Assembly (NCBI GenBank): GCA_030538275.1
Contig: JAUNUH010000011.1
Coordinates: 46,683 to 110,682, forward strand
Direction: 5' to 3'
Length of the DNA stretch: 64,000 nt
Origin: Flavobacteriaceae bacterium
Lineage (GTDB): Bacteria > Bacteroidota > Bacteroidia > Flavobacteriales > Weeksellaceae
In this document: piece by piece, positions 40,628 to 41,884 of the stretch
How positions within the stretch are numbered: position 1 is the stretch's first letter
Layout: the number at the start of each line of letters is the position of its first letter
The notes under the pieces: generated by a model
The model's database searches: none
Seen by the model: the letters and a program-made list of their open reading frames with translations, nothing else
What the model was told of the DNA's origin: nothing
Made by a program: the position numbers and the translations under genes

Positions 40628-41884
40628 ATGAAAGCTAAAATATTTCCCTTGTTTTTTATTCTAGGATGCGCGTTACAAGCACAGACCTATTCGCTGCTCC
40701 AAACAAGCAGGCCTAATGCAACACCCGGTCCCGCCTATGAATCTTCTCCTTGGTTATTTTCGCCAATGTCAGAGTATGGCCCAACCTCGGTTGCTGTTTC
40801 GTTCACCAATACACCTGCCACGCAGGATATAACCACTGTGTGGCACGAGGAATCGCTGATGCTAGGTGCCACCAGTACAAATGCACCTAATGGAAAAGAA
40901 ATTCAAACCATTTCGATTCATGCGCATTTGGGTCGAATTGGTCAGCCTTCAAGCACTTATTTTTCTGCATCTATTGATGAAATAGGCTCAGGAATCAATG
41001 CCGAAGGGCTTTCTAATACACAGAATGGTGCGTTTGTGCAATATACATCTGCAGAATATTTGGCAATAGAAAATCCATTCGTTTATAAAAATGATACTTT
41101 TGAATTAGGTACTGTTACCTACACCTTTAGCAAACCGGTAGATAATCCAATTATTCATGTTTCTGGTCTAGGAGCGATTTCACAGACAGGGACAAATATA
41201 GACGATGTGGAATATCTTTGGTTTTCAACCGAATTAGAACTCACCGGAGATTCTGAACAGTATTCGCTTGAGCGCCTAAGTGGTTCCAGAATGATAGAAG
41301 AACAAGATGGTCAAGTATATTTTGATGAATTAATCTTTGATATTGATGCATCGGGAAAGAAAATTGTCAATCGATTCGCAGATAATTTTTTGGTGTTGCC
41401 TGATCAAAGAGGGACGCAGGGAGATGAAGCTGCATCTGGTAGTGCGCGAATAGTAGGTGAAAATATTAAACATCTGACCTTTAAAGTTTGGATGAGAGCT
41501 AAATCCGACGGCCGATGGACGCAAAATACCATGTATGCAGGTGATGAATACACCGTTAGTTTTTCATTTAATGAAAATATTTGTGTGAAGCCGGCTGTGG
41601 GTTCACCAACGGCAACGAGTGTTGGAATTTCTACCCTGAACCGAAATGTGGATAATTGGTTGAGCCCAGCGAAAAATGAAAATATGTTGAGCGCATATAT
41701 TGCACTGGAATCTACCAACAAAGCATTTGTAATTACCAGAAACTCCAATCCTGAAGCAAATATTTCAGAACCTGTAGAAGGTATGGTGGTTTGGGATACC
41801 GCTGCCAATTGCCTCAAAGTTTATAAAGTAAATAGCCAGGGTGAAGGCTCTTGGAACTGTACGGCACAAGGATGTAACGAATAA
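40628..41884 (+). CDS. cassette 1 protein b: exported protein with a unique N-domain and the conserved 4-Cys C-terminal domain
   Basis: Start trimmed to MKAKIFPLFFILGCALQAQ. The last ~100 aa (from the Cys codon at 41582) align with the C-termini of 49625..51676, 55371..56216 and 58026..60557. Confidence 0.8.
   Translation: MKAKIFPLFFILGCALQAQTYSLLQTSRPNATPGPAYESSPWLFSPMSEYGPTSVAVSFTNTPATQDITTVWHEESLMLGATSTNAPNGKEIQTISIHAHLGRIGQPSSTYFSASIDEIGSGINAEGLSNTQNGAFVQYTSAEYLAIENPFVYKNDTFELGTVTYTFSKPVDNPIIHVSGLGAISQTGTNIDDVEYLWFSTELELTGDSEQYSLERLSGSRMIEEQDGQVYFDELIFDIDASGKKIVNRFADNFLVLPDQRGTQGDEAASGSARIVGENIKHLTFKVWMRAKSDGRWTQNTMYAGDEYTVSFSFNENICVKPAVGSPTATSVGISTLNRNVDNWLSPAKNENMLSAYIALESTNKAFVITRNSNPEANISEPVEGMVVWDTAANCLKVYKVNSQGEGSWNCTAQGCNE

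Follow-up and report, generated by a model that had tools for sequence, protein, structure and literature searches.

Type B C-terminal domains (CTDs) of type IX secretion systems (T9SS) are tags of about 90 amino acids (aa) on diverse Sec-exported surface proteins of Bacteroidota, whose partner gene lies immediately downstream, as in the pairs SprB/SprF and PG1035/PorP. Type B CTD proteins bind PorP-like proteins for anchorage, and attachment of the cargo via the CTD is the role proposed for this tag (PMC9143113). T9SS signals are also recognized by shuttle proteins (PMC12618676). A comparable gene layout is known from phage fibres and their assembly chaperones (Pam3 gp24/gp25, Tfa-type), which are likewise encoded by a small gene directly downstream and co-vary with the fibre (PMC9608196, PMC10579305). 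In the 3:3 complex of Pam3 gp24 and gp25 the chaperone embraces the distal fibre end (PMC9608196), and chaperone caps have been described for phage fibres (PMC10579305). Here, a stretch of 64,000 nucleotides (nt) from a Flavobacteriaceae bacterium (Weeksellaceae in the GTDB lineage; GCA_030538275.1, contig JAUNUH010000011.1, positions 46,683 to 110,682; referred to as the window) was analyzed. It encodes four secreted proteins that end in the same four-cysteine domain (the tail or CTD), each of them followed by a gene for a small secreted protein (the partner) that is built from two related modules (Table 1).

The reading to which we give about an even chance is that the tail represents a cysteine-stapled C-terminal subfamily of the PTL_trimer/DUF2793-like module and serves in assembly or docking by pairing with the cognate partner. 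The evidence for it consists of the homology of the modules, the C-terminal position, the diversity of the N-terminal passengers, the conserved adjacency of the two genes, their co-divergence and the compact model of the partner. The downstream two-module gene, which is absent from the initial annotation of the window, was found to be the most informative feature. The most interesting comparison is the functional analogy to the type B CTD/PorP-like pairs, although the tail shows no sequence relation to TIGR04131, TIGR04183 and Por_Secre_tail, and the partner is a soluble two-module protein of 150 aa homologous to the tag and not an outer-membrane beta-barrel.

For the analysis of the tails, their coding ranges were translated on the + strand and each was read to its stop codon. 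The four translations are identical to the sequences given in the initial annotation, except that the range assigned to copy 3 begins three residues (CIE) before its quoted sequence. The tails form the C-terminal ~92-100 aa of four + strand open reading frames (ORFs), and their passengers are of the Sec type with signal peptides ending in ...A/S↓Q sites (the arrow marks the cleavage position). The alignment of the four tails contains 25 invariant columns, the four Cys among them, and pairwise BLASTP comparisons of the tails resulted in E-values of 9.5e-17 to 4.9e-36. For CTD protein 1, the match to the CTD hidden Markov model (HMM) reached the last residue (E 6.4e-33), and no tail copies beyond these four were detected in an HMM scan of the whole window. 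The coding DNA of the copies is 52-64% identical, which points to an old, selectively maintained domain and not to a recent duplication.

The passengers of the four CTD proteins are mutually unrelated (best BLASTP E 0.21). No family match in Pfam or NCBIfam was found for the passenger of CTD protein 1. The Asp-rich repeats of CTD protein 2 resemble the thrombospondin type 3 repeat with sub-threshold matches only (Pfam/NCBIfam), next to a stray 9-bit match to MtsC in NCBIfam, and the passenger of CTD protein 4 matches the Pfam families Beta_helix (26.3 bits) and Chlam_PMP (25 bits).

Each tail gene in the window is directly followed by its partner ORF with a gap of 19-29 nt, one pair overlapping. 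All four partners (173-191 aa) carry a signal peptide (...SA↓QV[AG][IV]E) and share the conserved end ...FNG.VW.FW. In the partner, a unit homologous to the tail's second half is present twice: positions 36-87 of the tail align with positions 127-177 of the partner in hhalign (probability 95.9%, E 5.5e-9), and the tail HMM also scores on two partner ORFs. The partner family comprises 764 matches at E<=1e-5, and the best 120 of the 764 are 159-214 aa long and all carry PF26696. Exactly one Cys is present in 23 and none in 96 of these best 120 proteins; in the window, the two subtype A partners (partners 1 and 2) have a single Cys in the mature protein, which is located in the motif G[MT]ICYD.

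The start codon of partner 3 lies within CTD gene 3, 13 nt from its end (56204-56216), an arrangement consistent with translational coupling. Partners 2 and 3 are each followed, right behind the stop codon, by a terminator-like hairpin on the + strand (Table 1). None was found between any tail gene and its partner, and the scan for promoters and terminators was overall at chance level.

To determine how often the two genes occur together, the window and all fetched loci were scored with the tail and partner HMMs, resulting in 22 genuine tail proteins. A partner was found directly downstream of 20 of the 22 tail genes, 19 of them at a distance of -44 to +31 nt and one at 206 nt. One further tail gene, from Ornithobacterium, shares a partner located 28 nt upstream. 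In the reverse direction, starting from partners of Empedobacter, Chryseobacterium, Epilithonimonas and Halpernia, the upstream gene ended in a full four-Cys tail in all four cases (E 1.5e-31, 1.2e-20, 1.9e-23 and 4.6e-29). Altogether, 24 of 26 CTD genes are followed by a partner; these counts are not fully independent because some of the loci come from the same genomes.

Furthermore, the pairwise identities among the tails are paralleled by those among the partners over 12 pairs (r = 0.78, Mantel p about 2e-4). The two tail subtypes, ..AY..LES..K.FVITR..VWDT (A) and ..GFI.LES...GFVPTR..IWN (B), always occur with the partner subtypes G[MT]ICYD and G.[ILM]VYD, respectively. A compact variant of the cassette was observed in Ornithobacterium rhinotracheale (locus L011, 1564-4963), where a partner-like protein of 170 aa, a protein of 181 aa with hardly more than signal peptide and tail, a partner of 186 aa and a tail protein of 320-333 aa are encoded, so that one partner is flanked by two tails.

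The same observations bear on the possibility that the partner is a dedicated assembly chaperone or cap, which would bind the tail transiently or stay on it as a retained cap, folding and oligomerizing it. We regard this as quite unlikely. The gene layout, with a small gene right after the fibre gene, is like that of the fibre-plus-chaperone pairs, the co-divergence of tail and partner would suit such a function, and the N-terminal half of the CTD is predicted to be unfolded alone. On the other hand, the partner matches no known tail-fibre-assembly family in Pfam at E<=1, and its PHROG matches are N-terminal parts of fibre-like proteins and not chaperones; for partner 4 the strongest of them (E 2.7e-7) lies in the N-terminal part of a family named 'tail fiber protein'. 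The partner is also homologous to the tail of its supposed client, which is unusual for chaperones, and has its own signal peptide and a confidently predicted compact body. The resemblance to the phage pairs is one of layout only. The window system is cellular and chromosomal, is located among housekeeping genes and has signal peptides on both proteins.

Next, the distribution of the tail was analyzed by searching 1.84 billion cluster representatives exhaustively with its profile. At E<=1e-3, 6182 proteins were matched, of which 1460 reached E<=1e-10. It was this search from which the family emerged; a word-indexed homologue search with the CTD had returned only 3-4 fragments. The best 150 of the 6182 proteins and three hits of the word search gave 151 proteins with a significant domain, which were divided into two classes. 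Class A comprises 84 proteins with one full-length match each to profile positions 1-92, and in 80 of the 84 representatives the domain lies <=8 residues from the C-terminus. The four Cys, described as conserved in the initial annotation, are all present outright in 75 of 86 full-form sequences. Seven of the remaining 11 are alignment slips with a Cys 1-2 positions off, and four are real exceptions: Cys1 and Cys90 are both lost in one, Cys74 and Cys85 are both lost in another, and two show single losses. These paired losses weakly suggest disulfides Cys1-Cys90 and Cys74-Cys85, in agreement with P0117, a generic module that has just the 74/85 pair. In 43 of 79 family members, including copy 3 of the window, an extra Cys is found 1-3 residues ahead of Cys1 (CxC or CxxC); an inter-chain disulfide or metal binding are possibilities for the resulting odd number of Cys.

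The passengers found across the family include beta-helix/PMP, CshA, Big_9, Rib, CLIPPER/DUF11, PA14, RCC1 and DUF4347 domains and a reprolysin-type protease. This survey of very different secreted proteins, together with the four unrelated passengers of the window, bears out the earlier description of one domain on otherwise unrelated proteins. Named members are annotated as 'hypothetical protein' or after their passenger (DUF4347, HYR, CshA-type, DUF642), and all of them come from Weeksellaceae or unclassified Flavobacteriales. The hosts are Profundicola, Ornithobacterium rhinotracheale, Chryseobacterium, Empedobacter, Epilithonimonas, Halpernia and Cruoricaptor, as well as the strains Ap0902, UJ101 and TAE3-ERU29; in O. 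rhinotracheale the tail is conserved over many isolates. A metagenome scan with a narrower alignment yielded fragments of the generic module only.

The position at the extreme C-terminus had led to the earlier suggestion of a sorting or anchoring role. As a secretion or sorting signal, the tail would be a new C-terminal signal for outer-membrane translocation by the T9SS or another system, and the partner its cognate adaptor or shuttle. The strict C-terminal position on diverse Sec-exported cargo in a T9SS-bearing family, the cognate gene immediately downstream, as in SprB/SprF, and the lack of any other visible export signal all fit such a function. We nevertheless consider it improbable. Neither a type A or type B CTD of the T9SS nor a PorP/SprF match was found at E<=1 in Pfam and NCBIfam; a neighbouring gene at one of the fetched loci (L019) carries an ordinary Por_Secre_tail, so that the T9SS signal is distinct from the four-Cys tail. 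The fold theme described below is that of fibre trimerization and not the Ig-like T9SS CTD, the same module occurs N-terminally and internally elsewhere, and the partner is a small soluble beta protein and not a beta-barrel. The anchoring or docking part of the earlier suggestion remains plausible, whereas nothing positive was found for a cleavable sorting signal, the tails showing no signature of the T9SS, sortase or PEP-CTERM type.

Individual known signals were rejected as follows. For T9SS type A (TIGR04183 / PF18962 Por_Secre_tail), none of the four CTD proteins gave a match at E<=1 in Pfam or NCBIfam. The same holds for type B (TIGR04131) with PorP/SprF in CTDs and partners, the latter being two-module PTL proteins. 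Hydrophobic sorting signals of the LPXTG, PEP-CTERM or MYXO-CTERM type were discarded, as the tails end in ...W.C....CN[QE] with no hydrophobic stretch.

Judged by sequence, the core of the tail (positions ~33-87) belongs to a catalogued, widespread and phage-related module family, and its fold is not new. The tail profile and the profile of the generic module align over 55 columns in hhalign (probability 99.7%, E 5.3e-26). Class B of the profile search consists of 67 proteins that contain the core alone (positions ~30-87) in 1-11 copies, mostly 3-8, with the consensus 'STTKGFLPPRMTTAQRDAI..PA.GL.VYNTTTN...YNGTAW'. These copies either occur at intervals along giant proteins (1000-4700 aa) or lie close together immediately after the signal peptide. 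Of 11 compact N-terminal arrays of the generic family, 8 are made up of exactly three modules and none of two. Altogether, the generic module was found internally, in tandem, N-terminally and in phage proteins, and 221 of 243 instances have no Cys. Further domains of its carriers are FISUMP, Kelch and Gly_rich_2, or a YadA head together with an endosialidase chaperone. The earlier statement that the domain always sits at the extreme C-terminus therefore holds, with few exceptions, for the four-Cys form and not for the core; likewise, internal occurrence in homologs, which the initial annotation had named as an argument against a positional function, was found for the core and not for the four-Cys form.

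Two Pfam families are relevant to this module. PF26696 ('PTL_trimer'), a family of newer Pfam versions seen here in precomputed annotations, matches tails and partners on several unrelated contigs. For the window genes, the match was 'weak' for the CTD protein of 683 aa, 'faint' for both partners and absent for the CTD protein of 430 aa; partner 2 (P0162) is listed with PF26696.1, and relatives on other contigs have unmarked PF26696 matches. No literature on PF26696 or on the meaning of 'PTL' was found. The distantly related DUF2793 (PF10983) occurs in the RcGTA tail-fibre protein Rcc00171 as well as in tail-fibre or structural proteins of phages (PMC5026251). The CTDs and partners of the window reach 12-15.4 bits against it, below the gathering threshold of 27 bits and over profile positions ~54-87 only, and the generic multi-module relatives exceed this threshold (44.5 and 49 bits). 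Apart from these sub-threshold matches, no CTD family was found in Pfam and NCBIfam. None of the three profiles (CTD, partner, generic module) retrieved a meaningful match from the PDB sequences, and no PDB sequence contains the module.

The tail core and both halves of the partner share with PF26696 and DUF2793 the pattern K-G-F-L-P-P-R ... G-L-x-V-Y-N ... Y-N-G-x-x-W. The phage tail-fibre associations of these families were also seen for the window module: its PHROG matches lie in the N-terminal ~20-110 residues of phage proteins, and two of the families are named 'tail fiber protein' (best E 2.7e-7). In comparison to both families, the window form has four conserved Cys in addition and, as its N-terminal half, a specific segment (C-x3-P...GIST.NRN..W). 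This form is single-copy, C-terminal, restricted to Weeksellaceae/Flavobacteriales and coupled to a two-module partner gene, whereas the generic modules are mostly Cys-free and N-terminal or internal in tandem.

In five of six viral loci checked, the cysteine-free module was located at the extreme C-terminus of a phage ORF, so that placement at the terminus is in itself no peculiarity of the cellular variant. Three examples are the ORFs of 246-737 aa on the viral contigs L025 (4372-5109), L027 (2943-5153) and L032 (1063-2766), which end in a cysteine-free PTL module. On L025 and L032 the next ORFs resemble, by eye only, gpW-like and gpJ-like baseplate genes, so that these phage proteins may be spikes or fibres. 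Only the cysteine-free module was detected on viral contigs, with neither the four-Cys tail nor the partner. A prophage origin of the cassettes was dropped on account of this result; the surroundings in the window are housekeeping genes.

Structure models were calculated with AlphaFold2 as monomers for tail 2 (alignment of 52 sequences) and partner 2 (62 sequences). The mean predicted local distance difference test (pLDDT) score of the tail model is 77.7. Residues 50-90 are confidently predicted as a short helix and three strands (pLDDT 91-96), and residues 1-45 have low confidence (56-77). The partner model is confident throughout (pLDDT 84.2, predicted template modelling (TM) score 0.78), and the leading strands are formed in each of its modules. 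The half-disordered lone tail and the compact two-unit partner hint, at the level of these models, that a lone unit needs other units to fold.

As the initial annotation had proposed, the tail model was compared to known structures using Foldseek, which yielded a theme of fibre trimerization and not of sorting signals. In the PDB, this theme comprises the N-terminal units of the CBA120 tailspikes TSP3/TSP4, the N-terminus of Bordetella phage Mtd, the trimerization domains of collagen XV/XVIII and a phage hyaluronidase. The confident 40-residue core has its closest structural neighbours in the small trimerization units (collagen XV/XVIII, CBA120 TSP3/TSP4 and Mtd), and its short helix and three-stranded sheet reach a TM score of ~0.5, normalized to the target, for the collagen XV/XVIII domains. 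The Foldseek E-values are not significant (>=0.16), a sequence relation is absent, and the disulfides and the N-terminal half of the tail have no counterpart in these units. A search of BFVD gave 914 matches to phage proteins, many with a probability of 1.00, including tail-fibre-like, glycine-rich and collagen-repeat proteins. For the partner model, no significant neighbour was found in the PDB.

These neighbours are homotrimerization units, and homotrimerization may be all that the tail does: it would trimerize its own passenger, with the cystine staple as reinforcement, and the partner would be a co-expressed, independent trimeric fibre or cap. The generic module is spaced along giant fibre-like proteins and occurs on YadA-head/S74 proteins, which are homotrimers, and one CTD protein lacks an adjacent partner (see below). 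We see this explanation as unlikely. It fails to account for the near-obligatory 1:1 adjacency (often with overlaps or <=31 nt), the result of the reverse test (4/4) and the cognate co-divergence within genomes, and passengers such as the RCC1 propeller and the metalloprotease have no obvious need to trimerize.

The tail might also be a lectin-like anchor that binds the cell's own lipopolysaccharide or capsule or a host glycan, as a small, disulfide-rich extracellular beta domain with an aromatic and Asn-rich motif (GIST.NRN..W) could suggest. A match to a known lectin or carbohydrate-binding module, which the initial annotation had named as a possible refutation, was found neither in Pfam, NCBIfam and PDB sequence searches nor among the Foldseek matches. 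Such an anchor would leave the partner gene unexplained and is considered highly improbable.

Under the preferred reading of the tail as an assembly or docking module, passenger and partner would both be exported via Sec and cleaved at signal peptidase I sites (...A↓Q). The small module would combine short strands with a short helix and a beta-meander of three strands, with the small oligomerization nodes of phage fibres and tailspikes as its nearest solved folds. Outside the cytoplasm, Cys1-Cys90 would close the domain and Cys74-Cys85 would staple a hairpin, stabilizing the tail. The tail of the passenger would then associate with the cognate protein encoded downstream, which consists of two such modules and nothing else. 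The product may be a composite multi-module body, either a pseudo-trimer of one tail and two partner modules or a 3+3 stack of homotrimers like the one that the Pam3 fibre forms with its chaperone (PMC9608196). The 1+2 pseudo-trimer is attractive in view of the compact generic arrays, of which 8 of 11 have three units and none has two. By way of this body, the passengers (adhesin-like or enzymatic) would be held in a complex that is oligomeric and probably attached to the surface; a location at the cell surface is presumed from the adhesin-stalk, beta-helix or protease domains of the passengers and their Sec signals.

In its most specific form, the proposal is a two-component cargo attachment in Weeksellaceae based on a 'split' PTL array, with a two-module base and a cargo that contributes the cysteine-stapled third module of a pseudo-trimer. 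This would allow display or assembly of adhesins and enzymes independent of T9SS CTDs, the specificity of the pairs being given by the co-diverging subtypes of tag and base. In this detail, the proposal is speculative and rather unlikely to hold as a whole.

Several observations weigh against the assembly or docking reading. The binding of tail and partner, the stoichiometry, the disulfide pattern and the surface location of the complex are what we infer from the data described above. Adjacency and co-divergence can be explained by co-inheritance of a duplicated cassette without any contact between the proteins. The reprolysin-type zinc metalloprotease with the HEIGH motif at locus L005 (3907-6285) has a tail but no adjacent partner; in the same genome, partners are present at other loci (L004 and L019). 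In P0130 (410 aa) and P0151 (513 aa), the four-Cys domain is followed by an unrelated, Cys-containing extension of 97-138 aa, and a natural fusion of CTD and partner was not found among such non-terminal cases. The partners have no visible membrane or lipid anchor, and neither the tail protein nor the partner shows a known route across the outer membrane. Foldseek returned no significant E-value for tail 2 against the PDB (best 0.16, with probabilities of up to 0.97), and the formation of trimers by PF26696 is something that we presume from the name of the family alone.

The positions of the cassettes and their neighbouring genes are given in Table 1. Outside the cassettes, the window is ordinary chromosome with genes for aconitase, UvrA, sigma-54, asparaginyl-tRNA synthetase (AsnRS), GlmS and topoisomerase IV subunit B. 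A large secreted adhesin-like protein that has neither the four-Cys tail nor a T9SS tail opens three of the four cassettes; these proteins may belong to the same surface structures as additional subunits. The genes for TetR-family regulators flanking the cassettes suggest that each cassette is individually regulated. In addition, a protein of 198 aa encoded at 36888-37484 on the - strand has weak LURP-one-related and Tubby C-terminal-like matches (E 5e-5 and 1e-3, respectively), a fold that is mostly discussed in eukaryotes.

Table 1. Positions of tail proteins, tails, partners and neighbouring genes in the window.
Feature	Position	Strand	Description
CTD protein 1	40592..41884	+	430 aa: signal peptide, passenger, four-Cys CTD
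Four-Cys CTD copy 1	41582..41884	+	Subtype A; 5-residue insertion ahead of the last strand
Partner 1	41910..42452	+	180 aa; ATG 41910; signal peptide ...LSA↓QVAIE and two PTL-type modules; subtype A (GMICYD); partner HMM E 4.6e-65
CTD protein 2	49625..51676	+	683 aa: signal peptide, Asp-rich repeats, four-Cys CTD
Four-Cys CTD copy 2	51389..51676	+	Subtype A; query of structure model
Partner 2	51696..52235	+	179 aa; two PTL-type modules; query of structure model; hairpin at 52242-52261
CTD protein 3	55371..56216	+	281 aa: signal peptide, short duplicated passenger, four-Cys CTD
Four-Cys CTD copy 3	55926..56216	+	Subtype B; extra Cys ahead of Cys1 (CIEC, 55926-55937)
Partner 3	56204..56779	+	191 aa; subtype B; hairpin at 56802-56825
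CTD protein 4	58026..60557	+	843 aa: signal peptide, right-handed beta-helix / PMP-repeat passenger, four-Cys CTD
Four-Cys CTD copy 4	60279..60557	+	Subtype B
Partner 4	60587..61108	+	173 aa; subtype B
Tail-less adhesin-like protein	37978-40581	+	DUF11/CLIPPER and isopeptide-forming fimbrial domain
Tail-less adhesin-like protein	45797-49585	+	CshA repeats, cadherin-like domains, Big_9
Tail-less adhesin-like protein	53299-55341	+	RCC1-like with Big_9
TetR-family regulator gene	44644-45351	+	Flanking a cassette
TetR-family regulator gene	57074-57775	-	Flanking a cassette
TetR-family regulator gene	61746-62429	-	Flanking a cassette

At the level of the fold, the tail is less novel, since its core is a catalogued, widespread and phage-related module. 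What appears to be undescribed is the combination of a cysteine-stapled module, a near-exclusive C-terminal position, the restriction to Weeksellaceae/Flavobacteriales, unrelated cargo and a near-obligatory, co-diverging two-module partner. If the specific complex of tail and partner is true, it would constitute a second, sequence-unrelated logic of cargo tag and cognate partner in Bacteroidota, beside the T9SS type B CTD/PorP-like pairs, and tail/partner pairs would represent a compact, disulfide-stabilized hetero-association module of possible use in protein engineering. A large uncharacterized family of modules, with more than 6000 cluster representatives from cells and phages, would thereby be tied to a concrete and testable function. 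The host family includes animal and human pathogens, among them Ornithobacterium rhinotracheale, Elizabethkingia, Riemerella and Chryseobacterium. As the tagged proteins are adhesin-like and annotated as 'hypothetical', the tag is a simple means of compiling candidate surface proteins and vaccine antigens from these genomes.

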